Both the position numbers and the translations under genes were made by a program. Source: Pelagomonas calceolata (taxonomy: Eukaryota). Taken from it: 64,000 nt of DNA. Below the pieces are notes generated by a model. The model searched no databases. It saw only the letters and a program-made list of their open reading frames with translations, and was not told the DNA's origin. Numbering within the stretch: position 1 is the stretch's first letter; every line of letters begins with the position of its first letter. Where the stretch lies: NCBI GenBank assembly GCA_918797485.1, contig CAKKNE010000001.1, forward strand, positions 5,456,001 through 5,520,000, read 5' to 3'. Below, piece by piece: positions 5,079 through 58,719 of the stretch.

Positions 5079-5099
5079 CTAGTGTCTTAGGCCGCTAGC
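5079..5099 (-). promoter_or_regulatory. Bipartite CTAG-flanked upstream motif
   Basis: GCTAGCGGCCTAAGACACTAG between divergent genes. Confidence 0.6.
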
Positions 5100-5266
5100 A
5101 CGCGTCCGCGCGCTTTTGTTCGAACACCCACTACCATACGCCAATTAAGACTGGTGGCCCCGCGTTCGGCGTTTTGGCCTCTCAGCTCGTGAATCTGAAG
5201 CCTCTTCGAGCGAGCTGCAAAAAGCTGCATATTGTGCTCTAAACTTCACGCACGAGGCTAAAGAGC

Positions 5267-7132
5267 ATGGCATCGCTGGACACCTGCGAGCCATCGATCG
5301 ATGCCGCACGAAGAAACGGCACAAGTGCCACTGCTGAGGACATGAGCGCTGCAGGCACCGCACTGTGCGACGCCAACGACGCGACGGTCACGCCGGACAC
5401 GAGCGCCGCGCAACGAACGATCACGCCGGACACGAGCGACGAGAACGACGACAACCCTTTGTTGGATGACGTCTCGGACCCCGACGTCGACGCGTGCCTC
5501 CGCGTGCTCGACAGGATCACAAAAGACCCCGCGGCCTTCGGGACGCCGCAACATCGAAGGTTGCGCGGCGCGGTGCGCGCCGCGCACGGGGCCCTGACGG
5601 CCGGCGACTTCGGTGGCATGGACGGTTTGGTCCACGGGAGAAGGCGGCAGCTCCGGAAGGAGAGGGAAGCTAGAGCGACGCGGCGCCGCGACCTAGACCA
5701 GAAGCACCGCGACTCGACGCAGTTGAGAAAGCAGCGCATCGACAAATTGAAAGCCTTGGAGAACGACCAGGGGCCCCTTTTGCTGGCGCCGGACGGCGCG
5801 GCCAAGGAAGGTACATCATCTTTGAACGCCGAGACGACGGATAGTTTCCGACACTGCTACACGTGTAAAAAACGCTTCGACGGCCTCCACGAGTTCTACT
5901 CGCAGCTCTGTCCGTCTTGTGCTGCGCTCAACTGGCGCATGCGGTCGCGCACCGAGGACCTGTCGGGCCGCGTCGCGCTGCTCACGGGCGCGCGCGTGAA
6001 GATCGGCTTCGAGACGGGCCTCAAGCTGTTGCGGGCCGGCGCTTATTTAATAGCGACGACGCGCTTCCCCCACGACCTCGCGGCGCGCTACGGTATGCTT
6101 GCGGCGTTCTTTTTTGTGTCTTCGCCCCCGAACGCACGCGTCCGCGCAGGGCGCGAGGCCGACGCGGACGAGTGGCGCGGTCGTTTGGAGGTGCACGGCT
6201 TGGACCTGCGGGATCTGCGGGGCGTCGAGACGTTCTGCGCGTTTATCGCGGAGAGGCACGAGGCCCTGGACGTCCTGGTGAACAACGCGTGCCAGACGGT
6301 AAGACGGCCGGCGCGCTACTATTCGACGCTCGTCGAGGGCGAGCGGCGCATGAGCCTGACGGACGGTAGTGGTGGTGAGAATGGCATCGCCGTCGTGTCC
6401 TGTGTGGAAATCAAATTTTGGGCGCCCCACGCCATCGACGCGATGCTGTACCTATAATTGCGTCTGCTCGATGGCGTAGAGTTTCACGCCATCGACGCAA
6501 CCTAACTCATTGGTTGATTTCCACAGGTCGTGTCGCGCAACGACGCGTCGAAGGCGTTGGCGGTGGTAGCGCCCGAGGACGAGACCGTCTCTTTTGTCCA
6601 AGGCAAGACGGACGTCAACGGCCAGCAGCTCGACCTCCGGGAGCACAACTCCTGGACGGCGACGCTGGACGAGGTGGCGACGGCCGAGGTCGTCGAGGCC
6701 CAGGCGATTAACTGCGTGGCGCCGTTCATCCTGTGCTCGAAGCTCCAGCCGTTACTGGCGAAGGCGGCGCAGTTGCGAGATCGGGCCTTCGTCGTGAACG
6801 TCTCGGCCATGGAGGGCAAGTTTTATCGGTATAAAACCCCGAACCACCCGCACACGAACATGGCCAAGGCGTCGTTGAATATGTTGGTGAGGACCTGCGG
6901 CGCGGACCTCGCCAAACGACTACATATCTACATGACGGCGGTCGACACGGGCTGGATCAACGACGAGAACCCCGCTCCCAAGGCGTACCGCACGGCGCAG
7001 ACGGGCTTCCAGACGCCTATCGACGAAGTGGACGCGGCGGCGCGGATTCTTCATCCCGTGTTCGATGGAATCGTGTGCGAGACGCCTCTGTCAGGTGTGT
7101 TCCTGAAGGACTATGGGGAGACGGAGTGGTAG
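5267..7132 (+). CDS. Short-chain dehydrogenase/reductase with N-terminal Cys-rich motif; introns 6093-6149 and 6392-6526
   Basis: CYTCK...CPSC, TGARVKIG, LVNNA, VVNVSAMEG, HTNMAKASLNM. Removing both GT-AG introns joins ORFs 5267 and 6530 in frame. Confidence 0.88.
6392..6526 (+). mobile_element. Introner-type TIR element forming a 135-nt intron
   Basis: Exact TSD GTCGTGTC at 6392-6399 and 6527-6534. Termini CTGTGTGGAAATC...GATTTCCACAG. Internal CGCCATCG/CGATGGCG units. Confidence 0.92.
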
Positions 7133-7171
7133 GCCTGTCTAACTTGTCACAATGTTACTTACTCGCCACCT

Positions 7172-7240
7172 CTAGTAGAAGCCGACGTGGAACGAGAACT
7201 CGACGATCAGCGGCACGAGCTCTTTCGGAACGAGGTGCGT
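7172..7240 (-). pseudogene. Orphan C-terminal coding fragment (LVPKELVPLIVEFSFHVGFY-stop)
   Basis: Protein-like stretch ending in TAG at 7172, with no start codon; abuts the + strand fragment at about 7239. Confidence 0.45.
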
Positions 7241-7595
7241 AGCAGCCCTCAACTACGCGTCGACCCTGGTTGATCTACAGCGCTTCGAAGAAGTCAAATT
7301 ACTGTATCGCAAAACGATACCCGTGGCGCGGCGCGTTGTCGGCGAGAATGATTCTCTCACGCTCCAGATGAGGGGTAATTATGTACGGATGCTCCACAGC
7401 GACCCAGGCTCCACGGTCAACGATCTCCTCGAGGCCGTAGAGACGGGCGAAGAGACGGTGCGGATTGCGCGGCGCGTGCTTGGCGGCGCGCACCCTATCA
7501 CAACGGGAACTGAGGGCGAACTTCGAAGAGCGCGAGCCGCCCTCCGCGCCCGCGAGACGGGCGGCGCCAGGGAGCCAGTAAGCACAGCGAACTAA
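7239..7595 (+). pseudogene. 5'-truncated TPR-like helical-repeat fragment, copy 1
   Basis: AALNYASTLVDLQRFEEVKLLYRKTIPVARRVVGE...RIARRVLGGAHP...ARAALRARET; homologous to 10926-11240. Confidence 0.7.
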
Positions 7596-7615
7596 ACTAC
7601 CGTATTAAATGTCTT

Positions 7616-10695: not shown

Positions 10696-10930
10696 TTATA
10701 ATCCATGCTCGAAACGCCTTTTTCGCCGTCGACGGCGTCGAGGCCGCTTGGGCGCGCCCCCGCGAGTATGCATGCGGGTCTTGGCCCAGCGGTCCTTGTC
10801 CGCCGCAGGGAGCGCCTGCCACATGCCGACGAGCGTATCAATAACCTTCCTCTCGCTCGGCCGCTCCGCTTCCCTGACGATCCTGCCCCGGCTCGTGGAA
10901 CGATGCGCCGCGCCAAAGAACAGGTATGTC
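10696..10930 (-). pseudogene. HMG-box-like fragment with basic tail, 5'-truncated
   Basis: YLFFGAAHR...LVGMWQALPAADKDRW followed by KRPRRRRRRKRR; lacks the N-terminal PKRP part of the box. Confidence 0.5.
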
Positions 10931-11240
10931 CCTTTTTGGTCTAAAACGCTTCGAAGAAGGCAAGGCACTGGTGCGCAGAACGATACCCGTGGCGCGACGC
11001 GTTTTGGGAGAGGTTCATGATCTCGCACTCACGATGAGGTGGACTTACGCGGCGGCGCTCTGCGACGACCCCGGCGCCACGCTCGACGATCTCCACCAGA
11101 GCGCGACGACGCTCGAGGACACGACACGGATCGCGCGGCGCGTGCTGGGAAGCGCGCATCCGGAAGTAGTGAATATGGAGAAAACCCTGCGAAACGCGCG
11201 AGCCGCGCTCCGCGCCCGCGAAACGGGGAGTGCTCCGTAA
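10926..11240 (+). pseudogene. 5'-truncated TPR-like helical-repeat fragment, copy 2
   Basis: LKRFEEGKALVRRTIPVARRVLGE...DPGATLDDL...RIARRVLGSAHP...ARAALRARET. Confidence 0.7.
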
Positions 11241-14378: not shown

Positions 14379-14605
14379 GGCTGCCGCGTCGCTAGCACAG
14401 CTCCAAAACCGGCAGCGCGGCTAAAGCGCTCCGATTCGCGTCAACTGTGGTTTGCTGTTTCCGACGGTTGTGGGGCTACGCCGTGCAAACCACGCCACCC
14501 AGAGGCAAAGTAACGATCACGCAAGGTCCTGAACACTGTCCTAGCCCGTTGCTGTGCTCACGCGATTCGGTTCAGGCCAAAACGGCTTTGCGAGCTTGCC
14601 GTAGA

Positions 14606-14627
14606 GCTAGCGGCCGTAAGGCACTAG
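14606..14627 (+). promoter_or_regulatory. Bipartite CTAG-flanked upstream motif
   Basis: GCTAGCGGCCGTAAGGCACTAG between divergent genes. Confidence 0.6.
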
Positions 14628-17551: not shown

Positions 17552-17574
17552 GCTAGCGGACTGTAAGGCACTAG
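17552..17574 (+). promoter_or_regulatory. Bipartite CTAG-flanked upstream motif
   Basis: GCTAGCGGACTGTAAGGCACTAG between divergent genes. Confidence 0.6.
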
Positions 17575-19464: not shown

Positions 19465-19580
19465 CGCGTCGACGGCGTCTGCTCGATGGCGTGGTGGCGG
19501 CGACGCGCGACGCCGCGGACTCGTCTGCTCGATGGCGGCCCAGAGAGGCCTCCGTCGGCCTCCACGCCATCGAGCAGACA
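19465..19580. repeat. Cluster of palindrome-forming CGCCATCG/CGATGGCG units between convergent genes
   Basis: GTCTGCTCGATGGCG twice and the inverted CACGCCATCGAGCAGAC; same units as inside the TIR introns; no TIR or TSD seen. Confidence 0.8.
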
Positions 19581-19627
19581 CAAGCCCCCGAAATTTGAGT
19601 TAACCTTATGTTATTAACACTCCTAAG

Positions 19628-28618: not shown

Positions 28619-28629
28619 GAACTAGTGTT

Positions 28630-36787: not shown

Positions 36788-36808
36788 GTTAGTAGTTTGT
36801 TGATTTTT

Positions 36809-39266: not shown

Positions 39267-39381
39267 GCATCCCTAGCAAGTAGATCAGATTCTGCTGATC
39301 GATGTGCAGCCCGCGCCTCGCACAGAGCCGAATGACTCGCGCTTCCACCCGCAGTTGCTGCCCCACGCCTAGGAATGGACG

Positions 39382-40956: not shown

Positions 40957-41254
40957 GTTTTAGCGGTGTGGTTTTATTTCTGTGCTATCATTACGCCATC
41001 GACGCGTCCCCCATGAGCCACAACCAAGGAACATACCCTCGCTGCCCCCGGAAGTCCCGCCGAGCCAATCGCAGCCCGGCGTCGCGAGGCCGCGGCACGC
41101 CGGGCCGAGTGGCTGCGAACCCTGCCTACCAGTAGCAAGCAGAGGGCCCTCGCGGCGTCGCCTCGGCGGAGTGCCTCTATTACATAAAGTTAACTTAGCC
41201 CCCGGCCTTGAGCCGATCCCCTGGGTGGGGGGAGGTCTTCGACGGGATACGTTA

Positions 41255-42682: not shown

Positions 42683-42733
42683 CGCTGCAATCGATGCGCT
42701 GCTGCAAGCTGAACTTGGGCCGCTTTGCAGGTT

Positions 42734-42755
42734 GCTAGCGGCTGAGACACACTAG
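42734..42755 (+). promoter_or_regulatory. Bipartite CTAG-flanked upstream motif (GACACACTAG variant)
   Basis: GCTAGCGGCTGAGACACACTAG between divergent genes. Confidence 0.55.
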
Positions 42756-43000
42756 AGTGCAGCAACGACGGTTGGGGAGTAGTGATTAAGTCCCAAAGAA
42801 GACTACTAGATTACGTCGAACGCTTTTATGGGAACGGCTTTCTCACCTGGCGTTAGACGCGCGCAGCGCGCATCGTTCAGATCATTTGGTGCGCGCCCGG
42901 AACAGTGGACCACGCCCGGGCAGCCCTTACGAGCGAGACAGCGCCGCAAAAGAACGCCGCCACCGTCCGGCAGCCCTTCGACGTGCGTGGACGCGCAGCC

Positions 43001-46000
43001 ATGAAAAACAAGGACAGCGCCAATACCGCGACAGGCGCAGCAGCGGTGGCGCCGAGCCCGCCCCCGCGCGGACCGAAGAACGCAGCGGCGGCGCGCGGGA
43101 TGGCGAACGGCGCCAGCGACCGCGTCGGAGCGGCGGCGGCGCGCACGATCGGCCGGTGCTCGACGGCGGCTCTTTTTGCTGCTGCGTGCGTCTACACCGT
43201 GTCTTCGGGGAGCGTCGTCCTCGTGCTGTCGGCGCTCACTGCGACGCACGCGACGATGGCGGCGGCCGTGAAGAAGAAGGGCGGCTTCTGCAGTCAGATT
43301 TGGAATTCCACGCTGAATTCGGCGGCGTTTTGGGCGTTCGCGGCGCGCACGACGGCCACGCGCTGCTCTGGCGAGTGGTCCGGTCTGCTCGGCGCGGCGA
43401 GTAGCCTAGGCGAGGACAACAGTTGGCGGTCGCTGGGCGCTGCTGCCGCCTCGGCGTGCGTCTGGGCCTTTTTCTGCGCCGTCGCCGCGCTGCTATTGCT
43501 CGCGGCGGCCCTCAATGACTTTAGAAGCTCCGCGAGGTGCGCGGCCTGGCGCAAGTGCGTCGCGCTACTGGCCTTGCCGGACCTCGCGGCGGCTCGGCTC
43601 GGACCGGCGAACGCGTCGGTCGCGCCGTTCTCGGAAAGGTTTGCTCAGGCGCGACGCAAGCTCACCATGACCGACAGCAACATCTACACGGCCGTCACGG
43701 CGTGGCTTGCGGACGCGACGGCGGCCGAGGCCGTGTACGGCCATATTTCTACGTGGGAGACTTCCGGGGTGACGGACATGTCGGAGTTGTTTTGCGCCGG
43801 GGACTATTGTGACTACTACAACTCGGGGGCAGCGTCCTTTAACGAGGACATTGGCGCGTGGGACACCTCTGGCGTCACGACGATGCGAGAGATGTTCCGA
43901 GGCGCCTCGGCCTTTAACCGAGATATCAGCAGCTGGCAGGTCGGCAGCGTCACGAGCATGGCGCACTTGTTCCTCCTAGCCTCGTCATTTAACCAAGACA
44001 TCGGCAGTTGGGCGGTCGACAGCGTCACGGAGATGAGCGGGGTCTTCTGGTACGCCTCGTCGTTCAACCAGGACATCAGTGGTTGGAACGTACAAAGCGT
44101 TACGAAGATGTCCGCCATGTTCCACCACGCCTCGTCGTTTGACCAGGACATCAGCGAGTGGGACACCTCCAGCGTAACGAACACGGATTCGATGTTCGAC
44201 GGTGCGTCGGTCTTTAACCAAAACATCGGTGGTTGGACGGTCCAGAGCGTCACTTCCATGCGGGACATGTTTGCCCACACGCCGGCCTTTAACCAGGACA
44301 TCGGCGACTGGGACGTCGACAACGTCTATATGATGGACTGGATGTTCGCCGAAGCCTCGGCCTTTAACCAGGACATCAGCGCGTGGGTCACCTCAAGCGT
44401 TACGAGAATGCCCCTGATGTTCAGCGGCGCCTCGGCCTTCAATCAGGACATCAGCGCGTGGGATGTCTCGGGCGTCACGTACATGAGCTTCATGTTCAGC
44501 GGCGCCTCGGCCTTCGACCAGGACCTGGGCTGGTGCGTTGATGAAGACGTTTTTGATCCCCATGATAGAGGCTACGACATTCACGACGCGTTCTTTAACA
44601 CCCCGTGCGCGTCGACGTCGTGCGGCGTCTCGGAAAAGGACGAAAGCGGCATCTGCCCGACGCCGCAGCCTACTCCTCAGCCGACGCCACGCCCAACTGT
44701 GAACAACGTCATGACCGACAGCAACATCTACACGGCCCGCGACGCGTGGTTTGCGGACCCGACGGCGGCCGAGGCGACGTACGGCCATATCTCCATGTGG
44801 GACACATCGGGGGTGACGGACATGGAGACCTTGTTTTGCGTGTCGCCGTCGCCGTCAAATTGGGCTGCTAACTGCAACGCGGCCGCTGCATCCTTCAACG
44901 AGGACATCAGCGCGTGGGATACCTCTAGCGTCACGAAGATGAGCTACATGTTCTATGACGCCGAGGACTTCGACCAACCAATTGGTGGCTGGGCAGTCAA
45001 TCAGGTCACGGATATGAGCTACATGTTCTACAATGCCAGGTCGTTCGACCAACCGCTCGGCGCCTGGCAGGTCGACAACGTTGAGAATATGCTCGCCCTA
45101 TTCAAAAAAGCCAGGTCGTTCAACCAACCAATTAATGACTGGAGCGTCGACAGTGTCACGGATATGGGGGGCATTTTTCACACCGCTGACGGCTTCAATC
45201 AACCGCTCAGCGCCTGGGAAGTCGGCAATGTCGAGAATATGGATGGGATGTTCATATACGCCCGGGCGTTCAACCAACCGATTAGCGGCTGGAGCGTCGA
45301 AAGCGTCACGCATATGGGCTACATGTTCGCCGAAGCTTCGGCATTCAACCAACCGCTCGGCGACTGGAACCTGCTCGACGGCGTGTCGATGACCAACATG
45401 TTCCGCGACGCCGAGGCCTTCGACCAGGACCTCGGCTGGTGCGTTGCTGATGGCGTTTTTGATCCCGATGATAGAGGGTACGACATTCACACCGCGTTCG
45501 AGAACACCCCGTGCGCGTCGACGTCGTGCGGCGTCTCGGAAAAGGATGAAAGCGGCATCTGCCCGACGCCGCACCCTACTCCTCAGCCGACGCCGCACCC
45601 AACGCCGCACCCTACTCCTCAGCCGACGCCACACCCTACTCCTCATCCGACGCCGCACCCTTCGTGGCAACCAACTCGTCGGCCTACGCCGCACCCTACT
45701 CCTCATCCGACGCCGCACCCGTCGTGGCAGCCAACGCCTCGGCCTACGTCGCTGCCAACTCCTCAGCCATCGCCGCGGCCGTCACTGCCTCCGACGCTGC
45801 GGCCGACGCCTCAACCGTCGTGGCAGCCAACACCTCGGCCTACGTCGCACCCGACGCCGATGCCGACACCGCAGCCCACTCCGGGCCCGACGCAAGTGCC
45901 GGTGCATAAATCAAACCGTCGCCGACTCGCCGCGCGTTTGAAGAAGCATGACCTCAACGCCATCGACGCGACGCCAGCTCGATGGCGTGGCGTCGTGGTC

Positions 46001-49000
46001 TGGTACCGCTGGTTCTGGCCAACACGGCGGCGTTCTCGCCGAGAGGGGACTTGGTGCAGAATTCTCGTGCGCCCCCGATTCACTGTTCGAATTGCCCACA
46101 GGCCGATGCCGACGCCGCAGCCGACGCCGCACCCGTCGTGGCAGCCAACGCCTCGGCCTACGCCGCACCCGACTCCGCACCCTTCGTGGCAGCCATCGCC
46201 TCGGCCTACGTCGCGGCCATCGCCGTCGCCCACCGTCGTGCCGGGCAGCCCGACGGCGCGCCCTGTCTTCAACCCGACGCCAAGGCCTACATCTCGACCA
46301 ACTCCCCAGCCCACAGCAAATCCTACGCCCCGACCGACGCCCATGCCGACTCCCGCGCCGAGCGCACGCCCTACGCCTGGGCCAACGCCGAAACCGACGT
46401 CGTCGCCGACCCGGCGGCCTACACCGCGGCCCACGCCGATTCCGTCGCCCCTGCCGTCGCGGCCGCCGACACCCGCGCCGTTGCCGGCTCCGTCGCTCAG
46501 GCCCACGCCGCGGCCGACGCCGCGCCCGACCTTTACTCCGACGCCGGCGCCGTCACCGGTGCCCGGAAGTCCGACGCAGCGGCCGACGCCCAGACCTACG
46601 CCGAGGCCTACTCCAGCGCCTACGTCGAGGCCGACGACGCCGGCCCCAACGCCGACCCAGATGGTCGTCCAGATTACATCGTCAGTGACGCTCGAGGGCA
46701 TCGTCGCCGTCGTTTTCAATGCCGACAAGGACGGCATGCAAGCTGCGTTTGCGCAGTCGATCATCGACAGCGTCGGCGGGCTCTTCGAAGAGATCATCGA
46801 AATCGAGGCCACCGAGCAGCGACGGCGCTTGCAAACAACGTATTCGCCGACAGCTGCGCCGACGTCCATGCAAGACGAGGAGGAGGACGAGGAGGAGGAA
46901 GACGTCGTCGAAATATCATACACGGGCGTCGCGCGCGTCGACGGCACCGACGGCGAGGCTGCCTCGGCGGATTTGTTGGAGCAATCTATGGACGCAATGA
47001 CGTTAGCGATCTATGATGGTAGTTTCTTGGCCACGCTGCAGGCCTCAGACCCTGCGTTCTCTGCCGTGGCCGTAGACGTCGACGCGACGCAAGCGGCGAT
47101 CGAGGCGGCGTCATATACGTTCGTCTTCCTGACGCCGGGGCCCACCGCCGCGCCTACGCTGGGCCCGACCCCGAGAATCACGTTTCCCGGAGCGGCCGAA
47201 AGCTCGTTTGACCCGCCCACGAACTCCAGCGCCAGCGGTTCCGGCACCGGCCCTGCTCTGGCGTCTACCCATATCATATTGATTGCCGTCGGTGGCGCTG
47301 TGCTTTTCTTGATAATGATCGGGTCGGCCGTGACTGTGTGGCGCCGCGAGCACGCGAGGCAGCAGCCCAAGCGGCCGACGGACGAAGCCATCGACGTCGA
47401 ACTCGGATCAAATGAGGCGGCGCTGGAGCGCCACCGGGACGTGACCAAAGTCGTGGCAACGGGCATGAGCCTCGTGAACACGCTGCTCACAGCGGGTTCT
47501 CTCGTGCCCTTCGTCGGAGACATCGCCGAGGTCGCGAACGAGTTCTTTGGCTCCGCCAGCGAATTTGGGGACAAGGCGGACGACGTCGTCACCGCGGCGC
47601 GGCGCGTCGTGGAGGTGCTGCAGCTGGTAGACCTCATGACGAAGAACGCGGACTCGCTGATAGAAGGCAAGGATATCGTGGAGGCGCGGATGCGGCAACT
47701 GCTAGAGCTGCTGCAATCTTTCCACGCCGCCGTGCGGGCCTTTGGCACGCGGGGCTGGTTTAAGAGAATGTGGACGATCCGCGAACACGTTGACTCGTTG
47801 TCGGAGCTGGATCGCGACATCAAGCTGCAGCTCGAGATGTTTCGAGACGCCTACCGGCTCGCGGTGGACAATGTTTACCTGGAGCGAACCTACAGGATCG
47901 AGCAGGCCATTGAGCGGCTTGTGGCCGAGAGAGTGCAGACGACCGGCGAGTCCAAAGCGACGGCCGTCGAGGCGCTGTCCAAGGACGCGGCGACAGTCGA
48001 GGCCGTCGGCGCGCACCTGCCGGCAGAGGAGTTCGCCGCCGAGCTACGAGAGTTCCACATACAGCTCCGGGCCGACGTGAAGGAGCTGCTGCGCCGCGAC
48101 TCGTCCCTCCGGAAGAAGCTGTTGCGTCGCGATTCGTCGCTGAAAAAGAGGCTGGGCAGCCTCGCCAACTCGCTGACGAAGAAGACCCAAGCGGAGACCG
48201 TGCGGTCACTCAAAAGCGACACGCTGGCGCAGCTCGAGGTTACCTTGGATAGCGTGGAGGACGTGCCCTTCGCACAGGGCGGCCAGGGCGAGGTTTTTAA
48301 CGGAACTTTGGCCGGTGAAGAAGTATGCCTGAAGAAAGTGTCGCTGGTCGGGTGCACCGCGGCCGGGCGCGAGCGGCTGCTGCGCCAGTTCAAGACGGAG
48401 CTTCTTATTATGGCGCGCTTGCATTCGCCGCGGACGGTCCGCGTCCTCGGCGTCGTCAGCACAGACCCGCGGTATCTCGGACTCGTCATGGAGTACATGT
48501 CGGGAGGCAGCGTGCGCAACGCGCTCGACTCCGGCTTGGGCTTGGCGGCCGACGTGCGGCGGACGTGGTGCTCCGACATCGCCGCGGGTATGCGCTACTT
48601 GTACGCGCAAGGCGTCGAGCACCGGGATCTCAAGTGCGCGAACTGCTTGCTCACGGCGGAAGGCAGGGTGAAAGTTGTGGACTTCGGGCTCGCGCGCTGC
48701 GAGGAGCTGCGCACCCAGCTCACGTCGACGATCGCGATGCACCTCAAAGGCACGCCGGCGTTCATGGCCCCGGAACTTTTGGAAGACCAGACGTTCACGG
48801 AGAAGTCTGACGTGTATTCCTACGCCATCGTGCTGTGGGAGATTTACGACCGAGGCATCCCGTGGTCGGGCCTCATGCCGGCCCAGATCATTTCCAAGGT
48901 GATCGTCAAGCACGCGCGGCCGCCGGTGCCCAAGGGCATGCCCGCCAACCTCCGCACCCTGATGTGCCGCTGCTGGGCCCACAAACCCGACAAGCGGCCA

Positions 49001-49294
49001 ACCTTCGCCGAGGTCGTCAAGGAGGTCGCGGTGCCGACGCCGCGCCGGCCGAGCTTGAGTTCGTTCGCGGCCACGGCCGCGCCCGGGCTGGCCCGGGACG
49101 AGACGCCGTCGGGGCAGGGTCCGACGCGCTCGCTCGGGAGCGGCGTCCTCGACAGGCTCCGCGGCGTCTTTACTCCGTCGCGCGAGGCCGCGGCCGACGC
49201 GCCGCCGCCGCCGCCGCCGCCGCCTGGCGCGACGGTCTCGGCGGGCGAGTCCGTCGACGTCATGGAGCTGTCTATTGATGGTGTGGATTGCTGA
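43001..49294 (+). CDS. Receptor-like kinase: two DUF285/BspA-like repeat modules, Pro/Thr stalk, TM, MLKL/HeLo-like helical domain, TKL kinase; intron 45892-46101
   Basis: 25-aa FNQDIxxWDxSxVTxMxxMF repeats; PTP repeats; TM about 47270-47340; kinase [33 protein letters not shown]. Start codon uncertain. Confidence 0.85.
45892..46101 (+). mobile_element. Degenerate introner-type element forming a 210-nt GC-AG intron
   Basis: GCAAGT donor; CCCACAG acceptor; degenerate TSD GCAAGTGC / GCCGATGC; internal CGCCATCGACGCG...CGATGGCG. Removal restores the PTPMPTPQ repeat. Confidence 0.8.
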
Positions 49295-49375
49295 TTCCGC
49301 CACCTCCTGCCCTTGGAGTAAAACAGAATAGTGTGACCCCGGCGGGCGAGCGTTCGAACACAGGGGGCTATATCA

Positions 49376-50062
49376 CTAGAACCGAACCTTAAGGTACACG
49401 ACGAACGCGACGACGGCGCCGAGGCATATGAGCGGCGCGTACTGCTGCCACGCGACCATCAAACTAAACTTCTTCGCGCCCCACTTGTACTTGCCCGCCT
49501 CGGACCGGAGCGTCTGCGACGTCTCCACGAGCGCGTCGAGGCGCTCGCCCCGGTTGAGCACCTCGTCGATGTTCCGCCGCATGATGCTGTGGATGTCCGC
49601 GAGGTCCGCGTCGAGCTGAGACGCCGCGCCCACCCGTCGCGGGTCGGCGTACTGCCGCCGCTTCGCCTGGAGCCGCCGGTCGAACTGGATGTACGCGTAG
49701 GGCCGGCCGACCGTCGCGACCGCCTGCCGCCAGTCGCCGCCGTTGCATGTATTTGTAACTTCCTGGACGAACTCCTGCGCGACCTCGCCCAAATAGCGGA
49801 AGATCGCCCGCTTCGGGTAGCTCTTGGGCGTCATCGCGAGGTAGACGACCGCGTCGGAGATGACGTAGTGGAACGCAAAGGGCCCGCTGTCGATGGAGCA
49901 CTTCGACGGCGAGCGCTCCGTGAGGCCCGCGAGGATCTGTTTGGCCTGGCTCTTGTAGACGTCCATCGTCTCCTGGCTGTCGCTGGAGCGCATCGGGTCC
50001 GTCGACGCGACCAGCAACATGCCGTCGGCGACGCGCGCGATGAAGCAGAGGTTGACGCCCAT
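49376..50062 (-). CDS. SEC22: Longin R-SNARE SEC22
   Basis: FIARVADGMLLVAS, YKSQAKQI, SYPKR, RPYAYIQFD, IMRRNIDEVLNRGERLD, C-terminal TM. Confidence 0.95.
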   Translation of the reverse strand: MGVNLCFIARVADGMLLVASTDPMRSSDSQETMDVYKSQAKQILAGLTERSPSKCSIDSGPFAFHYVISDAVVYLAMTPKSYPKRAIFRYLGEVAQEFVQEVTNTCNGGDWRQAVATVGRPYAYIQFDRRLQAKRRQYADPRRVGAASQLDADLADIHSIMRRNIDEVLNRGERLDALVETSQTLRSEAGKYKWGAKKFSLMVAWQQYAPLICLGAVVAFVVYLKVRF

Positions 50063-50297
50063 CGTGTTGTGTTTTTTTTGTTTTCGACCGGTGCTCTTGC
50101 AGATCAGCGGCGCCGATACGTGACGGCGCGCGTCGACGGCGTATAGATCCAGCCGCAAGAGGAGGCTGGTAGTCGCGCTTTCGCAAATCCGCAGCAGGGA
50201 AAAGGCTGTCGCAGCAACGCTCGTAGCACCTGGCTGCTGCAAATCACACGTTCGGTGCTCAAAAACACGCGGCACTGGAATTTTTGGAGGCGCGCGA

Positions 50298-50320
50298 GCT
50301 AGCGGCCAGTAAGACACTAG
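50298..50320 (+). promoter_or_regulatory. Bipartite CTAG-flanked upstream motif
   Basis: GCTAGCGGCCAGTAAGACACTAG between SEC22 and RPAP1-like. Confidence 0.6.
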
Positions 50321-50476
50321 CGTCCGCAAAAAGCCTAAAACAGCACCGCTACTGCTCGCAGAGCTCACAATTTATCGTTCTTACAGACGCTACACACCAC
50401 AGAGAACGCGGTGCATCGGTGCGGCCCAGCTCTTACAGCTCCAGGACGCAACAAGCACCGCTCGCCGCCAAGCACC

Positions 50477-53278
50477 ATGGTTGTCTCCGGCGTAAAAGAG
50501 CGCACGCCTTCGACAAGAAGCAGCGCGCCGCCGCGCCCGCCCCCAGGCGGCGGAGGCTTCCCGACGCGGCGCTGGACGCCGACGCCGCGCGCCGAGAAGC
50601 CGCCGCCGCCCGCGAGTGCGCGTCCAATCAAGCCGACGGACGACGCGGGCCGCAAGGTCGCCGCCATGTCGCCGGATGAAGTAAGAGACGCGCTCGACGA
50701 CGTGCGCGCGACGCTGAGCCCGGCGAACGTCGAGTTTCTGCGGAAGCGCGGCGCCGCGAAGCTCCAACGACCGCGGCTGCCGCCGGCCCCGAAGCCGCGG
50801 CCCCTGCCGCCGGGCACCATGCCCACGAACGACGCCGAGCTCGCGGCCGCCTGCGCGGCGCTGCCGCCGACCGAACGCGCCAAGCTTGACTGGACGGCCG
50901 AGGCCGACGACGACGACGCCGCGAAGAGCGCCTCGGCGCTCAGCGAGGCCTTCGTGGCCGCTCAAAAAGATTTGACCGTGACGCAGCGGCGCGCGGCCTT
51001 CTCCACCTTGGTGAGGGAGGTCGTCCTCGAGGGCGCCATGACTTTTGCAGATGCGCCTCTTCGATTGCTCGAGGCGCTGGCGCGCGGTCTGGCGGACAAG
51101 GGGAAGTACAAGCGGGAGAACGGCCGCGACGCCGTGTCAGGATTGATCACGTTGTTAAGGCGGTCGCCGGACTACGTTCCTTCAACCAAGGACGACGCGC
51201 GGGCCTTCGCTGGACATGCCTGGGACGCCGCGGCCGTCCAGGGCCTGATCCAGCAGGGGACGAGCGACGCGCTCGCGGTCGTCGCGCGGGCCGCGCTGAT
51301 GTCGGAACCGGCGGCGGCGAAGTTGGTCGACGGGGGCGCCTCGGCGGCAGCCGTCCGGGCCTGCGTTGGTGGCGACGCGAACGGCGCGCTGGCCGCGGCG
51401 GCGCTCGTCGAGCGCGGCGCGCCCGTGAGCGACGCGCGGGCCGCCATGGCGGCGTGTGTGTCGCACGAGGTCGACGCCTGGGCCCTCGCGGCCGCGACGC
51501 TCGCCGCGGCCTTCGCGCGGCGCGCCCCGGCGGACGGCGAGTGGCCCGCCGCGCGCGTCGCGGCGCGGGCCGCGGCCGCGTCAAATGCCGCGCCCGCGGG
51601 CCTCGTCGCGGCCGCGCTCCTGCGCAAGTGTTGTAGGGGAGGCACGGTGGCCGAGGCCGACGCCGCGGACGTTTTGATGGAGCGTCTCGCGGCCTGCGAC
51701 GATCCTACGACCTTGACGGCCTTCTGCCGCGCGGCACACGCGTCGGCGGCCGCGCGGAGCGACTACGCGCGGGCCCTCGCGGCGTTGGCGCGAGGTACCG
51801 GGGCGCTGGCGCCGGTTCTAGAAAGGTGCGAGGCCGGAGCCGCCGACGACGACGACTGGGCCGCGGCGCGCGCGGCCTGCGCGCTCGCGGCGGCGGCGGC
51901 GGCGCGCCTGCCTCAAAAGACGGCGGCCGCGCTGGGCAACGCGCGCGCGGCGTTCGCGGCGACCGCGCGCGCGTCCGAGCGGCGCGCCTGCCGCGACGCC
52001 GTCGCGGCCTTCTACGACGACGCGACCGACGCCCCGGCCAAGCAAAGCGAGGCCGACGACGACGTCCTCGTTGACGACGCGGCCGACGACCGCCGGGGCG
52101 CCTTCCACGCGGCTCACTGCGTCCCCGGTCTGTGTGGAAATCAAGAGATTGCCACGCCATCGAACAGGTGTCGCGTTGATGGCGTGGGGCGTCCGAAATT
52201 TGATTTCCACACAGGTCCTGGCGCGCCGGTTACGCGAGGCGGACGCGGTCTCATTTGCATTGATGGCGCCGTGCGCCTGCCGGCAGGCGCGCTACGCGGA
52301 GCGTTGCGTTGCTGAGAGTGAGCAGGAGGATCCGGGCCTGCAGAACCGCTGCGCGGCCGCGCTGCGCGGCGGCGCTCTGCCTTTTCCCCCGGCCTGGGCC
52401 CTCGCCGCGAGCGATGCCGCGCCCCCGGCGAGCTATGTCGCCGCCTGTGTGGAAATCAAAATTTTACGGCGCGTTACGCCATCGACGCGACGCCTGCTCG
52501 ATGGCGTGGCGATGCCGGTTCCTCACCGCTCGACCGAGCCAGGACGGCCGCTTCATCGCCGAAAAATGACTTGGTGAAGAATTGTCGGGTGCACTCGACG
52601 CACTGGTTGATTTCCACACAGGTCGCCGCGGTCCCGCGCGGCGCACTACTCGCCCACGCACTGCGCCGCGCTGCGCGTCCCTCCGTGGACGTGGAATCCT
52701 TGCTCACGGACACTGTGGCTCGTCTGATAGATGAAGACGTCGTAGAGGGCGCCGCCTTTCTCCATGAGTGGGTCCAGGGCGAGGCCACCAAGTCGCCGGC
52801 AGTGCACAAATCAAAATGTCGCGACGCGTCTCCACATTCATTTGCGCACAGGTCGCCGGAGAGCAGGCGTGACGCCGCGTTCGGTGCTACCATCGAGCGC
52901 CTCAACGGTTTGGTATTGGCGGAGTTTCCCGCCTCCACAAAGTCGGCGCGCCTCGCGCTGGGCCTGCTCCTCCAACCAATATTCCCGCCGGGCGTGCGTG
53001 CGGCCGTGTGGCGCGTATGCGGCCTAGCAGGCACGGCAGCGCACCTTCGCGTAGACGTCGAAGCGTGCGCCTGCTCCGCCGAGGACGCGGAGCTGCTCGT
53101 GGACGACGTGCTGTTGTGTTTGAAGCACGATCCACCGGCCGACGCGCCCTGTGTGCTACTGGCGAAGCAACACCTCGCCGCCTTCCTGCGCGCCGCGCCC
53201 GAGGGATCCTTCGCGCGGGAAAGCCGCGCGGAGCTTCTCCGGGACAGTGGGGCTGGATGGGCTGTGCGACGTGATTGA
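50477..53278 (+). CDS. RPAP1: RPAP1/Rba50-like RNA polymerase II-associated protein; introns 52121-52214, 52437-52621, 52792-52851
   Basis: MSPDEVRDALDDVRATLSPANVEFLRKR matches the RPAP1 N-terminal motif. Three introns join ORFs 50411, 52071 and 52571 in frame. Confidence 0.7.
52121..52214 (+). mobile_element. Introner-type TIR element forming a 94-nt intron
   Basis: TIRs CTGTGTGGAAATCAA...TTGATTTCCACACAG; degenerate TSD GTCCCCGGT / GTCCTGGC. Confidence 0.88.
52437..52621 (+). mobile_element. Introner-type TIR element forming a 185-nt intron
   Basis: Exact TSD GTCGCCGC at 52437-52444 and 52622-52629; perfect TIRs. Confidence 0.95.
52792..52851 (+). mobile_element. Minimal introner-type element (second TIR variant) forming a 60-nt intron
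   Basis: Exact TSD GTCGCCGG; imperfect TIRs CAGTGCACAAAT...ATTTGCGCACAG. Confidence 0.85.
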
Positions 53279-53540
53279 TGATGAGGAGCCTTTGAAATGG
53301 TCCTTGGACGTCGACCCTTGACGCCTCAAGCGGCGATCCCGTTCATCACGTCCCACCTCCAAAGCGACGACAAGGGCCTGCGGCCAGCGGTCTACGACGC
53401 GTGCGCCGAGGTCGTGAAGGAGTCCCGGGAGGAAGTAGATATTTTGCCATTATTTATTACTCACAACACTAAAGTTAGTCTGCGAATTGAAGCGTGCCAC
53501 CCACAGGCGCGTCGCGTTGCCGGACGAGGCGTGGCCGACT

Positions 53541-55337
53541 CTAGAGATTCCACTTGAACGGATTCGGCCCGTACTCCTTCTCGAAGGCCGCGGCGACGAC
53601 CTCGCCGTGGTCCGTTTTGTAGCCCGTTTTGTAAAGCGGGTTCGCGAGGTAGTCGCGGCAATACTCCTCCAGGCCTAATATCTTCATCCACTCGTAGCCG
53701 CTCGCGTAGCGATTCTCGACCTCGGGCAGCAGCCCGCGAAATCCGACCTCGCGGTACCACTTGCCGTCGTCCTTGCCCTGTACCGTGGCCAGACCGATGT
53801 GGTCGATGACCATCTCGATGACGCCGCGGTCCAGGAACTTCGCCGAGAAGCGGCCGCAAGCGTGTTTAACAAAAGACGCCGCGCGCTTGAACGTGAGGCC
53901 CGGGTAGCGCTCCTGCAGCAGCGCCAGTCGCACCGCGTCCGGGCCCTCCAACTCCACTTCGTCGTCGCTCAGAGCTTGCATGGCGCCCTTCAGCAGCACG
54001 CGCCGGATGCGGTCCACCTCCAACCCTTGCTGCTCCGTCCGACTCATCCGATGCCACGTGATAGGGTCGACTTCGAATTTCAATCTAAATACAGTGCGCC
54101 CGCGTGGGTCGTGGCACAACGCGCTGGGGATGTAGGCGTCTATGTACGCGCGCACGGCGGCGTTCTTCGAGTCCAGGTAGAACTCGATGCCCGGGAACCG
54201 CTTGTTCAACGCCTCGTCGCAGAGGCGCCTAATTAAGAGCTTCCGAACGGCCAGCACGGCGCCCTTCCAGCCGCCGTCGACGTGGTCGATGTTCGTCTTC
54301 CGCGGCTGGCCCTTGAAACACGGCAAATCAGATGGCGCCACCGGTGAGACGAACTGGCGTCGGCCATCAAATGTTTTAATTTTGACCAGCGCGGACCCAT
54401 CTAAATCCTCGAACGGCGCCGCGAGCGCGTCCAGGATGTCGTCGCATTTCGCAATCTGATATTTCAACGACTCCTTAGAATTGCCGTAGTACGTCTTCTT
54501 GTCTTGCAGCAGCTGCTTCTCCACCAGCTCGCGGATCAAACTGGAGTACGCGGCGTCGTCGCCGTAGCGCACCCGCTCCTCGCGTCCCCTAGTACCGCCG
54601 TTGAAGCCGTTCGCCTTCGAGAGCTGCAACATATTGTCGTAGGCCTCGTGTTCGGCCTTGTAGAGGTTTCTTGCCAATAAGCTAAAAGCGGCCGCGACGG
54701 CCCAGTCCGCCTTCATCTTGTCCGTCGTGCAGTGTTTCTTGCGCATATCCTCGAGGCTAAGGCCATCCGGGATGTCGCCCTCGTAGAAGGTAAGCGCCCT
54801 TCCTGGCTGGCCCGACTTCGGCGACACAATATCAAACGGCGGACACGCCTTGCTGCCGTCCCAGTCGTTCTCCATGTCCTGCCACCGCGTGAGGTCCGTC
54901 CCCACTAAAGCTTTCCAGAAAGCCCGCTCCAATCGGGCCAACTCCTGTCTCGCCAGTCCTGATGCAGTAGCAGCACGCTGATGCTGAGACAACGTCGCGT
55001 CCGCCGCGATGGCCGGTGCGGGCGTCGGCACGACAACGGGAGCCGCTTCGGGCTGCACGGGCGCCGCGGCCTCGAGAGCGGGGTCCGTTTCCATGGCCCG
55101 CAGCTCCGTCTCGCGCTCGCGCTTCAGCTGCGCAGCGACGATGGCCTGGCCCTCCGGCGAAGCTCTTCGAACAAATCGCGTCTCGGGTTGCTCGCAGCCG
55201 CCGACGGGGCCCTCGACGGTCTCCGGGATATCAATTGACGCAACGTAAGCGTCGACGTCGGGGATTTTCTTCTGGTAGTTCGGCACGTTCCGCATCAAAT
55301 TCGCCAGATCATCGAGGAGGGTCGGAGGCGCTTCCAT
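53541..55337 (-). CDS. Intronless hypothetical protein, about 600 aa
   Basis: Long ORF with globular-protein composition; no motif recognised. Confidence 0.7.
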   Translation of the reverse strand: MEAPPTLLDDLANLMRNVPNYQKKIPDVDAYVASIDIPETVEGPVGGCEQPETRFVRRASPEGQAIVAAQLKRERETELRAMETDPALEAAAPVQPEAAPVVVPTPAPAIAADATLSQHQRAATASGLARQELARLERAFWKALVGTDLTRWQDMENDWDGSKACPPFDIVSPKSGQPGRALTFYEGDIPDGLSLEDMRKKHCTTDKMKADWAVAAAFSLLARNLYKAEHEAYDNMLQLSKANGFNGGTRGREERVRYGDDAAYSSLIRELVEKQLLQDKKTYYGNSKESLKYQIAKCDDILDALAAPFEDLDGSALVKIKTFDGRRQFVSPVAPSDLPCFKGQPRKTNIDHVDGGWKGAVLAVRKLLIRRLCDEALNKRFPGIEFYLDSKNAAVRAYIDAYIPSALCHDPRGRTVFRLKFEVDPITWHRMSRTEQQGLEVDRIRRVLLKGAMQALSDDEVELEGPDAVRLALLQERYPGLTFKRAASFVKHACGRFSAKFLDRGVIEMVIDHIGLATVQGKDDGKWYREVGFRGLLPEVENRYASGYEWMKILGLEEYCRDYLANPLYKTGYKTDHGEVVAAAFEKEYGPNPFKWNL

Positions 55338-55553
55338 CGCGGTAATGAGCGACCGTTGGAGCGGGTGTCGGCGAGCAGCAGAGGCGCGGAGGATGCTGCA
55401 AGACGACCCCTTGGTCAGTAGGATACGGCGTAATAGCATAATACGCCACAGCGGCGTTCGATCGGCGAGTCTGAGTTGCCTTGCTGCGTCGAGCTGCAAC
55501 GGAAGGCAGCTATGCGGCAGCGGCAACAAGCCACTTGTCCGCAACAAAGAGAG

Positions 55554-55575
55554 GCTAGCGTCGCTGACACACTAG
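55554..55575 (+). promoter_or_regulatory. Bipartite CTAG-flanked upstream motif (GACACACTAG variant)
   Basis: GCTAGCGTCGCTGACACACTAG between divergent ORFs. Confidence 0.55.
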
Positions 55576-55731
55576 GATTGGCCTTGGATGCATCGGAAGC
55601 ACCCATGGACCTGTCCAGCGTGCTCGTGCATGAGTATGCCAAGGCGCCCGTTGAGATAGTGTCACCTGTGAGTGGGTCCTGTGACAGACCTGTGGCGACC
55701 CAATTATTGTGGGCTCATTGAGCATCATTTG

Positions 55732-56890
55732 ATGCGTTTGCTATCAAAACTCGTACTCTCGTACGCCGCCGTCGCTACCGCGTTGACGAACGTGGGCTTC
55801 GGCGGCAAGAGAAAAAGCTACAAGCATCTCCAGGAGTTAGACCTGGGATTAGACTGCGACAGCCACCGCCTCGGCGCGGTAGCGATCGCATTTGTACTCG
55901 GCGCTCAAAACCTGGCGGCGATACCCGGCGGCGCGCCGAACCTCGCGCTCGCGCGGCTCGCCGGCTGGGAGTATTGGCTCCGCGGCGACGGTAACTCGCG
56001 AGGATGCTTCCTCCAGTCCTGTGCGACGCCGTGTCGTCGACGTATCTGCGAGCGCACGCGAACCGTCCACCCCCTCGCAGCATGGTCGGACCCGAATCCG
56101 AAAGGCATGGTCTGCATCATCCCGTCGTCGTTCATCGCCATCTGGAGCACGCTCTGGTACCAGAATTGGCCCGCGACGATGCCTGGCGGCGGAGCCGAAG
56201 TTCCAGGCGCCTTCGAATCGGATCCACGGATACGCCATCGCCACGATATTCGCCATCTACACAGGTACGTGAACAACGACATTAACAACCCGGGCACGAG
56301 CGGCCTCCCGGGCAACGGCATCGTGCGCCGCCGGCGTCCCAGTACTCATATATGACCGCGTAGACGCGTCACAACCGCACAGGAGGACTGGCTGCCGTCG
56401 TGCAATGTGATCGCGCGTTTCCGGCGTCTCAGTACTAATTGACCGCGCGAACGCGTCGCGACCCCCGCAGGTCCACTTCACGCCGACGGGCGCGGTCTAC
56501 CTCGCGGCCGTCGTCAAGGACGACGCTGGTACGGCCGGCGTCGCCGGGGACCATCCCGCCGAGGCCGGCAACGCGTTCCTCTTCGTCCAGAATGCGGTCG
56601 CGGGCGCGACGCTCTACGGCCGCCAGGGCCTGCCGTTCGTCGACGTGACGGCGCACCCGAACCATTGCTGCGCGCCGCCGGACCGGCGCGTCACGTGTCA
56701 CGTCCTGTGTAGAAATCAATCTTCGTTGATCTCCACTCCATCGAGCAGACGTTGTTACGGGACCAGCGTCGTGTCGATGGCGTGGACGGACCATGCGGTT
56801 TACAATCGCGTCAATGGCGTGTGACTTGATTTCCACACAGGCCGCGTCGGCCCCTCTAAGTCGCGCCAGCACCGCGTCGGCCGCCTCTAG
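55732..56890 (+). CDS. Multi-exon gene or decayed gene, possibly SGNH-hydrolase-like; proposed introns 56157-56264, 56323-56382, 56407-56470, 56697-56840
   Basis: Proposed splicing gives ...GNGI-EDWLPSCN-VHFTPTGAVYLAAVV..., resembling the SGNH block V (xVHF...G) motif. 5' structure uncertain. Confidence 0.4.
56697..56840 (+). mobile_element. Introner-type TIR element, 144 nt
   Basis: TIRs CTGTGTAGAAATCAA...TTGATTTCCACACAG; TSD GTCACGTC / GCCGCGTC. Confidence 0.88.
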
Positions 56891-57029
56891 TCTCTTGTGG
56901 ACCTCACTTAAGTTTGACGCAAACGCGCTATTTCTGTCAGAAGCGACAGATTTGTCAATAATCGATCAAAAGAATCGCACCGGCGCCCGTGTAAGCCCCC
57001 GCGCGCGTATAACCTGGCTTGCTGGTTCC

Positions 57030-57052
57030 CTAGTGTCTTACATGCCGCTAGC
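57030..57052 (-). promoter_or_regulatory. Bipartite CTAG-flanked upstream motif
   Basis: GCTAGCGGCATGTAAGACACTAG upstream of the STI1-domain gene. Confidence 0.6.
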
Positions 57053-57193
57053 TCGGTTTTGTGGCTTTGAAGTTGACGCACGGCACACAGCAATTGTACT
57101 TGCGTTAATAACAGCTCGCAGTCGAATTCGCGTTGAATTTGCCTATAGAAACGGCACTCAGCGCATAAATTTGCGCGTTACAGCTATTGCAAT

Positions 57194-57916
57194 ATGAAGC
57201 TCGCTGCACTGGCGCTCTGCCTCGTCGTCGCGTGCGACGCCTTCCAGCACCTCAGGCCAGGAGTGCGGGCACCGCTCGCGCTGCATGGCAAGACGCGGGG
57301 CGACGGCAGCGAACCAGCCGAGGATGATGGACCGCTCGACATCGACGCTGCCATCGACGAGGCGCTCAAGTCGCCCTCGATAGTAGATGCAATCAGCGAG
57401 GACATCAACGCGGCGCTCGGCAAGGACGACGCCAAGACACCCGAGGAAATGAAGGTCGGCGAGCTGACAGCCGAACTCGACCTAAGAGGCATCGACTACT
57501 CGGACTGCATCGAGGCCGACGAGCTCCGAGCGAAGCTGAAGGATGCCCGGTTATCCGGGAGAGCGGGCAAGGACGTCCTGGACAATTTCAACAAGGCGAC
57601 CGCGGAAGCGATGTTCGACAAGGAGAAGAACCCCATGAATCTGTCCAAAGAAGAACTGGAAGCGATCAAGGGCGAGGACGGCGCCATCCCCGGCGGTCTG
57701 GAGCCCGACGAGGTCTTCAAGCTGATGAACGACCCGGAGGTGATGGCCATGGTCCAGAAGCCCAAGTTCCAGGAGATCATGGCCGACGTGATGAAGGGCG
57801 GCGGGCCCATGACGCTCCAGAAGCACATGGCCGACCCGGAGTCGCGCGAGATGCTCATGACGCTGACGAAATTGCTCCAGAACGCGGGCATGGTGCCGCC
57901 CGGGGCTTCGCGGTAA
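57194..57916 (+). CDS. Plastid-targeted STI1/DP-domain protein
   Basis: Leader MKLAALALCLVVACDAF; LMNDPEVMAMVQKPKFQEIMADV..HMADPE. Confidence 0.8.
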   Translation: MKLAALALCLVVACDAFQHLRPGVRAPLALHGKTRGDGSEPAEDDGPLDIDAAIDEALKSPSIVDAISEDINAALGKDDAKTPEEMKVGELTAELDLRGIDYSDCIEADELRAKLKDARLSGRAGKDVLDNFNKATAEAMFDKEKNPMNLSKEELEAIKGEDGAIPGGLEPDEVFKLMNDPEVMAMVQKPKFQEIMADVMKGGGPMTLQKHMADPESREMLMTLTKLLQNAGMVPPGASR

Positions 57917-57940
57917 CATTAATTGTGACTTAACAACGAG

Positions 57941-58558
57941 CTAGGGCGCGGCGCAGGCGAGCGTCGGCCAGGGCACCGCCTCGGCCTTGCGCAGCGAGAC
58001 GACGACGCGGTTTTTCTCCGCGACGACCTTGTAGGAGCAGTGTTTCGGGACGATGTCGCACGCCAGGTTCACAGCGAACTCCCGGCGAGAGTCGTCTCCC
58101 GCGGCGTCCGGCACGACGACGACGACGCGTACCCGGCGCCGTTCGAACGACGCCACGACGCCCGCGTCGAGGCAATGGCGCGCCGACCCGTCCTCCTCCG
58201 TCCGGCGCGCGCGCAGCTCGCCCGCCGCGAACTCGATGTAAATTTTGCACGTCTCCTCGCCGTCGGCGAACGCGTACTTTTTCAGTGGACTCGTCTCCGG
58301 CCGCCGCACGCGCGCCGCGTCGGCGAGCCGCGCCCGCAGCCGCGCCACTTCTGCACGCAACCCCTCCATCGATTCATCAGCGGGCGCGTCGGCCACGGTC
58401 GCGGCGGCGCCGTCGAGGCGCCGCGGGCCCTGGCCAGTGTGCGTCAGGCCCTCACCGCTTATGGTCTTTGCATCCTCGGGTACCTCCCAGGCCTTCGCCG
58501 CATGCGCGTAGTAGTACGGGCCATGCTGCTTTGCGAGGTCCACTGCTGCTTTTTCCAT
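57941..58558 (-). CDS. CS (p23/HSP20-like) domain co-chaperone
   Basis: YAFADGEETCKIYI...IVPKHCSYKV..NRVVVSLRK..W. Confidence 0.75.
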   Translation of the reverse strand: MEKAAVDLAKQHGPYYYAHAAKAWEVPEDAKTISGEGLTHTGQGPRRLDGAAATVADAPADESMEGLRAEVARLRARLADAARVRRPETSPLKKYAFADGEETCKIYIEFAAGELRARRTEEDGSARHCLDAGVVASFERRRVRVVVVVPDAAGDDSRREFAVNLACDIVPKHCSYKVVAEKNRVVVSLRKAEAVPWPTLACAAP

Positions 58559-58697
58559 CTATAACGGCTCGCAGGCGTTGCTGCACGCAACACCACTCGA
58601 TCGGCTCCACGAATGTGATGTCGCGGGGCAGCCCCGCACGTGCGCGACGAGCCGTGATAGCGCAGAGCGCCGATCGAGCTCGTCTAGGCCACTTTTG

Positions 58698-58719
58698 CTA
58701 GTACCTTACAGCCGCTAGC
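58698..58719 (-). promoter_or_regulatory. Bipartite CTAG-flanked upstream motif
   Basis: GCTAGCGGCTGTAAGGTACTAG upstream of the CS-domain gene. Confidence 0.6.

Follow-up and report, generated by a model that had tools for sequence, protein, structure and literature searches.

A near-palindromic CTAG element in the promoter gaps of Pelagomonas calceolata, a probable general promoter-organising site

Why does one word of some two dozen bases recur in front of genes that are functionally unrelated? This question is raised by a 64,000-nucleotide stretch of the Pelagomonas calceolata genome (assembly GCA_918797485.1, contig CAKKNE010000001.1, positions 5,456,001 to 5,520,000 of the forward strand), hereafter called the window, which has a GC content of 63.9%. 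An initial sequence-only reading of this DNA had noticed eleven copies of a bipartite element with a CTAG in either half. Here we analysed these copies together with matches from marine metagenomes, and we propose, at a probability of about two in three, that the element serves as a general promoter-organising site and that a sequence-specific general factor likely binds it.

A gene map of the window was built from open reading frames (ORFs) and Pfam domains, and 30 intergenic gaps were classified. Every one of the eleven copies was found in its place, seven on the plus strand and four on the minus strand. The search pattern proposed with them recovered ten and missed the copy at 26715, which has a C instead of the first G. 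The TAAG form of the pattern matched seven times in the window and never in 100 dinucleotide shuffles. Divergent gaps hold the copies at 5079-5099 (minus strand, between an EDR2-C gene and a short-chain dehydrogenase gene), 14606-14627 (plus), 17552-17574 (plus), 42734-42755 (plus, a variant copy between a methyltransferase gene and a DUF285-kinase gene), 50298-50320 (plus, between the genes for Sec22 and an RPAP1-like protein) and 57030-57052 (minus). Tandem gaps hold those at 36809-36826 (minus) and 55554-55575 (plus), both of the TGACAC variant, and at 58698-58719 (minus). Two further plus-strand copies are set apart by their interior, namely 26715-26732 by a short spacer and 39238-39266 by a 6-nucleotide (nt) insertion at the central TA. 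The gap map thus agrees with the earlier count of seven copies between divergent gene pairs and none in convergent gaps, with the element present in 7 of 12 divergent gaps, 4 tandem gaps and 0 of 13 convergent gaps. Eleven of the 17 gaps that contain a 5' end, or about two thirds, carry the element, as compared with none of the 13 convergent ones (Fisher p = 3e-4), and one copy per promoter gap is usual. Divergent gaps that contain the element vary little in their short length (293-449 nt, n = 7), as compared with 366-1374 nt in those without it (n = 5; p = 0.048). The genes adjoining the copies encode Sec22, RPAP1-like, U-box, bestrophin, sulfotransferase, STI1 and dehydrogenase proteins and are as unrelated in function as had been supposed. 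The closest named relatives of the Sec22 protein are those of Aureococcus (63%) and Pelagophyceae sp. CCMP2097 (60%).

Genome-wide occurrence, which the sequence-only reading had assumed, was tested by a strict-pattern scan of marine metagenome loci in one of the 64 parts of the collection. The strict pattern was present in 122 metagenome loci, corresponding to an estimated 9,200 or so stretches, and 123 unique copies remained after removal of duplicates, so the assumption held. Proteins beside two of these loci were identical to P. calceolata entries; ten neighbour proteins were looked up, and the two that carried a species name were both assigned to P. calceolata. No strict match was found in viral contigs, and prokaryote genomes gave 24 matching stretches in 596 Gb, of which seven resemble algal copies in marine bins and the others look like chance.

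The marine prokaryote bins with algal-type copies provided loci L123, L124, L125, L135, L137, L142 and L144. Identical flanks of L137 and L144, one in a bacterial and one in an archaeal bin, suggest eukaryote contamination. Large algal contamination was not found, with one to three loose matches in each of five such bins.

The 123 metagenome copies define the consensus A-GCTAGCG-GCCTG-TAAGACACTAG-CAAGC, a near-palindrome of 24-28 bases. Its halves are inverted, as proposed from the 5/6 match between CTAGCG and CACTAG, but the symmetry is fuller than that and amounts to an imperfect 12+12 palindrome with perfect GCTAG/CTAGC ends. The element also runs past the ends originally given to it, with an A at position -1 in 54% of copies and a CAAGC-like tail, and a G precedes TAAG in 97-99%. 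The spacer comprises 5 nt in 73 copies, 4 nt in 32, 3 nt in 9, 6 nt in 7, and 7 nt and 1 nt in one copy each. Hence the spacer variation of about 11 nt first described is real for the window, where the distance from CTAG to CTAG ranges from 13 to 24 nt, but it is atypical, as 105 of the 123 metagenome copies have a spacer of 4-5 nt. Agreement with the consensus is 63-75% at spacer positions 1-4 and 99% at the fifth. The left half alone was not enriched (60 non-strict matches as compared with 84-91 in shuffles) and the right half alone barely so (15 as compared with 9-10, about seven of them with a left half nearby), and the halves are therefore not common stand-alone motifs. One metagenome promoter (L072) contains two elements, at 304-324 and 405-426, arranged back to back and 80 nt apart.

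Where the element stands relative to genes was examined in metagenome loci of at least 1 kb, in which ORFs were predicted; the window served to train the codon model. None of the 81 testable copies lies inside an ORF, although 65% of this DNA is predicted to be coding; together with the 13 empty convergent gaps of the window, this bears out the claim that the element avoids coding DNA and convergent gaps. A single one of 37 two-sided contexts is convergent, and the neighbouring gene presents its 5' end to the element on 83 of 113 classified sides. The distance to the start codon is the same on both sides (median 176.5 nt on the left, n = 40, and 174 nt on the right, n = 43; p = 0.49), in full accord with the orientation independence proposed before. 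Orientation independence would also be expected of a replication-origin mark or of an anchor of chromosome structure (cohesin/condensin, or a recombination hot spot) that sits in promoters only as open DNA, and the quick turnover and inversion described below for the surrounding core would fit frequent breaks. However, about one element per 6 kb is dense for origins, and the tight, symmetric distance to 5' ends and start codons and the lack of the element in convergent gaps speak against such a role, which we regard as very unlikely.

RNA evidence consisted of stranded poly(A) raw reads and of assembled contigs of two samples; the libraries were not cap-selected, and runs X1 and X5 are only presumed to be RNA. 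For the leftward transcript at copy 14606, piled 5' ends on the minus strand span 14576-14586, 20-30 nt from the element, with piles at 14576 (13 molecules, depth 31), 14583 (5 molecules, depth 12) and 14586 (5 molecules, depth 5). The minus-strand Sec22 transcript shows piles at 50268 (9 molecules, depth 40) and 50266 (6 molecules, depth 24), 30-32 nt from copy 50298. RNA ends flank copy 14606 on each side, and contigs end at 17535 and 17587 around copy 17552 and at 56949 and 57088 around copy 57030, and start at 26760 beside copy 26715 and at 39301 beside copy 39238. All in all, two genes have raw-read piles at a distance of 20-32 nt from the element, and contig ends fall 9, 13, 14, 17, 28, 35, 36 and, once, 81 nt from it, which substantiates its closeness to transcript 5' ends. 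Copies 5079 and 36809 are outside RNA coverage, and copies 42734 and 58698 showed no 5' end among the matches listed. Base composition close to the element is polar as well. Runs of at least four T on the outward strand fall into the first 25 nt of 27 of 121 arms on one side and 20 of 119 on the other, as compared with 3 and 3 in the next bin (p of about 1e-8 and 1e-7, with approximate denominators); A-runs number 16 and 13. The distribution of T-runs gives an A-element-T layout, and the A-T skew reverses across the element, as divergent genes predict. Copy 36809 (region 36788-36826) could also serve as a roadblock terminator or boundary because it begins 21 nt past the upstream stop codon.

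The element contains donor-like GTAAG and acceptor-like CTAG words, and a 7-bp stem is possible on one strand, so that a role in RNA, as a splice signal or hairpin, might be considered. We judge it extremely improbable, as the element lies outside the mapped 5' ends and is used alike in both orientations, folds no better than shuffles in six of six tests (z -0.93 to 0.87), has no Rfam match in the window and has no copy at which the matches listed show a splice joint. A known structured RNA was rejected on the negative Rfam search and the absence of a fold beyond shuffles, and an intron or introner on the absence of a splice joint at copies among those same matches and the position outside 5' ends.

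Is the element maintained by selection? The scan for decayed copies weighted all 24 positions alike over 275 kb with the seed copies masked, and it tolerated a single indel and hence misses longer spacer changes, including those of five window copies. It returned ten matches at a cost of at most 4, as compared with none in three shuffles, and two at a cost of 6, where 0.7 were expected; costs of 5-8 brought no excess, and a tail of decayed copies is lacking. None of the 27 differences in these 12 matches fell into the ten core columns (p = 5e-7). The CTAG cores are constrained while the spacer drifts, and the invariant core columns and the missing decayed tail are the pattern of purifying selection on contact bases. 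The same data bear on the idea that the copies are functionless, neutral relics or excision scars that gather in open promoter DNA. Promoter gaps are generally accessible to transposons, and footprint-like add-ons do exist (see below). However, spacer divergence is 32%, at which about 0.1% of neutral copies would retain the 18 fixed bases; with six strict copies, neutral decay at the spacer rate should therefore have left about 6,200 decayed copies in 64 kb, and none was seen. This largely refutes neutrality, which also fits poorly with gaps that hold one copy each, at a set distance from starts, and with copies that persist as their flanks diverge; we consider neutrality highly improbable.

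The sequence-only reading had named flanks that align as part of a longer repeat as the sign of a transposon remnant. Beyond the short tail, however, the flanks of the loci are unalignable, apart from a few homologous promoters and one multi-copy gene family. Two pairs of homologous promoters, L014/L113 (with 73% identity over 506 nt) and L054/L096, have kept the element and differ within it by spacer changes only. Assignment to MITEs (miniature inverted-repeat transposable elements) or other DNA-transposon relics was rejected, since the arms are imperfect and only 7 bp long, the flanks are unrelated, the CTAG is invariant rather than a site-specific duplication, and the age spread of decayed copies is missing. 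Helitrons end at their 3' side in CTAG followed by T, with a hairpin before it; a Helitron 3' end was likewise rejected, as T occupies position +1 in 0 of 120 copies and no significant hairpin is present.

The element has a defined location, is symmetric and is constrained. It occurs as a single copy in many unrelated promoters and outside ORFs, independent of orientation and at a short, fixed distance from 5' ends (in libraries that were not cap-selected), as sites of general regulatory factors do. From these properties we infer binding by a factor, the chromatin state and a causal role. In the model that we favour, the element would form the centre of compact Pelagomonas promoters and be usable in either orientation. 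The predicted factor would be a dimer or two proteins, one for each CTAG half; aided by the T-runs, it would exclude nucleosomes from the gap and so permit initiation about 10-35 nt out on either side. Template switching between the two inverted arms of 7 bp would produce flips of the element, and a flip would cost little because an outgoing transcript meets the same CTAGC at either end. A candidate class for the binding factor, by analogy only, is that of the AP2-domain proteins.

Several observations weigh against this proposal. Raw-read piles were found at just two of nine RNA-covered copies among the matches listed, again in libraries that were not cap-selected; contigs from the RNA runs bridge copies 50298 and 55554, the latter in one contig. 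No initiator signal stands at a fixed distance from the element, and a pyrimidine-purine start fits the piled ends at just three of five places. Periodicity of CpG phased on the element was not significant, with 22 of 200 jittered controls equally strong. Five of the 12 divergent gaps lack the element and function nonetheless, the aldolase promoter among them, and the information content of the element exceeds what a single factor needs. The A-element-T polarity is opposite to that of yeast promoters as given in PMC4212969. The test on conserved promoter pairs is limited because both members were chosen by exact match.

The comparison of homologous promoters brought to light a further property. 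Four pairs were compared, each chosen through the motif, and in two of them the element is inverted. In its best pieces, locus L046 shares 88-89% identity with window positions 26535-28770. The 5' regions on either side align with those of the promoter of copy 26715, the cores of 111 and 117 nt do not, and the element occupies the same offset (20 and 26 nt) in opposite orientation. Inversion of the whole core was rejected, as the two cores are unalignable in either orientation. The second pair, L062/L089, has a 44-nt segment in common; the element stands 56 nt from it in one locus and 62 nt from it in the other, with its orientation reversed, and here homology is less sure. In addition, short add-ons follow the right CTAG at unrelated loci in both orientations, GCATCC in 3 and GGATG in 4 of 121 copies (0.04 and 0.13 expected). 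In the window, GCATCC stands at 26709-26714 (plus strand), left of copy 26715, a flank typical of the opposite orientation, and GCATCC-CTAG at 39267-39276 (plus strand), where it duplicates the terminal CTAG of copy 39238; the CTAG is duplicated in the same way in L061. Copy 39238 is identical to the copy in L018, including the 6-nt insertion at the central TA, although their flanks are unrelated. Finally, a contig from run X1 that derives from elsewhere in the genome (joint 39267-57029) joins two elements tail to tail across a short GATGC-like linker. Such traces would be expected after transposon traffic or template switching.

These features suggest another origin, in which mobile DNA seeded a working promoter site and goes on remodelling it. 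The element would be the minimal, co-opted joined-end or excision product of a transposon that duplicates TA or CTAG, and a domesticated transposase domain might bind it. Tc1 transposons duplicate a TA target on insertion and leave a footprint of 3 nt on excision. The CTAG at each end around a 7+7 imperfect palindrome, the add-ons above expectation in both orientations with their duplicated CTAG, the insertion common to 39238 and L018, the two inversions and the tail-to-tail contig all agree with such an origin. There is one Tc1-like DDE gene among the P. calceolata annotation rows listed in part of the PMC9481584 supplement, and a retroelement origin has been proposed for human ZNF143 SBS2 sites (PMC3627581). 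However, a search of 275 kb turned up no longer element with ends of this kind, and none of the four homologous pairs, each of which was chosen through the motif, showed an empty site. Most changes in the spacer are point substitutions or indels of 1 nt, the add-ons exceed the Tc1 footprint, the homology of L062/L089 is uncertain with 44 nt in common, and template switching can invert the element without a transposase. A mobile origin is compatible with promoter function; as an explanation we hold it to be unlikely. A bolder version appears slightly more doubtful still. The element would then be a transposon-born, flippable 24-bp cassette that serves as a two-way core promoter, underlies most promoters and binds a domesticated protein of transposase type; inversion, scarring and re-seeding would still be going on. 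If this were true, new bidirectional promoters would be made by pasting one small unit.

The element is apparently undescribed, though of a known kind of promoter element (Abf1/Reb1/ZNF143-like). The sequence-only reading knew of no description, and none was found in the open-access literature on Pelagomonas, Aureococcus and stramenopile promoters (core or bidirectional) or on the left half-site in algae, as judged from listings and the beginnings of abstracts, subscription papers and the right-half string not having been searched. The words promoter, motif and palindrome are absent from the main text of the P. calceolata genome paper, promoter and palindrome from its preprint, and four searchable supplements held nothing relevant. 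The genome paper counts 16,667 genes. From 11 copies per about 31 window genes, the genome would hold roughly 5,000-6,000 copies. As Pelagomonas is among the most abundant ocean picoeukaryotes, the motif offers a handle on transcription start in a compact stramenopile genome. So long a motif could bait out its general factor, sharpen the annotation of gene starts, flag contigs of Pelagomonas in metagenomes or contaminated bins, and provide algal genetics with a two-way promoter of 300-450 bp. Through the flips and scar-like add-ons, point mutation and mobile DNA become testable as routes by which promoter motifs spread.

A number of side observations were made near the element. A second promoter word, GGGCAGCC, is enriched on either strand near the element (28 occurrences as compared with 2 expected), at 25-200 nt from it and not farther. 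It occurs in the window at 24547, 32869, 32901, 42918 and 58626 and in many metagenome loci, and also at promoters that lack the element, such as 32860-33316. CpG frequency over 134 copies shows a symmetric dip about 160 nt from the centre, just before the usual position of the start codon, and a peak at about 300 nt. In L027 (about 1795-1850), short telomere-like repeats lie less than 200 nt from the element in an internal promoter gap. Two convergent gaps of the window (7241-7555 and 10928-11222) contain fragments of the multi-copy family, which by inspection has a MYND-like/RING-like N-terminus and a helical C-terminus and is found in L002, L031, L048, L057, L077 and L089. Full genes of this family adjoin the element in several loci, which hints that the family is mobile or duplicates fast.

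Intron-like repeats to which many foreign reads map were seen at 6408-6524, 19553-19583, 22913-22944, 25385-25525 and 52440-52625. RNA reads show that 25385-25525 is spliced as a GT-AG intron, and the group likely represents the introner-type introns reported for P. calceolata in its genome paper. The DUF285-kinase gene beside copy 42734 is a 2097-residue ORF (43001-49294) in which DUF285 repeats are joined to a Pro/Thr stalk and a protein kinase. Reads over 43102-45769 are mostly of the opposite strand and those over 47771-49104 strongly sense, which may reflect antisense RNA, an internal start or reads from paralogs.

How does the element compare with known systems? The sites of the yeast general regulatory factors Abf1, Reb1 and Rap1 occur in many unrelated promoters and in either orientation, and that of Abf1 is bipartite. 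In all these respects, and in standing as a single site near oriented A/T tracts, the element would be their analogue. It differs from them in a sequence that is unrelated, longer and quasi-palindromic, in a spacer that tolerates a change of one nucleotide either way, and in an edge only 10-35 nt from starts. The A-then-T tract polarity is the depleted arrangement in mammals, yeast promoters having the opposite, T-then-A (PMC4212969). The human ZNF143/THAP11 sites SBS1 (18 bp) and SBS2 (25 bp) lie about 70 bp upstream of starts, are enriched in bidirectional promoters and are found in 17% of these, according to PMC3627581. They resemble the element as long, high-information motifs of bidirectional promoters. 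However, the element occupies 7 of 12 divergent gaps, its consensus lacks the SBS2 words ACTACAN and TTCCCA, and SBS is not a variable-spacer palindrome. MITEs and Tc1/mariner-type footprints have palindromic target-like ends, add-ons in both directions and TA-flanked insertions in common with the element, which in turn lacks long terminal repeats, a variable target duplication and decayed copies and has a fixed promoter position. The Toxoplasma AP2XI-5 site, GCTAGC, is described in a preprint (PMC13734140) as a single 6-mer that peaks at -84 in 12% of promoters and serves a cell-cycle programme. The identical 6-mer forms part of the left half of the element and is matched at five of six positions in the right half, and both are located in promoters; in contrast, the element is a paired site of 24-28 bp in a distant lineage. 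At least 17 annotation rows of P. calceolata name an AP2 domain among those listed in part of the PMC9481584 supplement, and the GCTAGC common to both sites, which may be due to chance, provides a lead.

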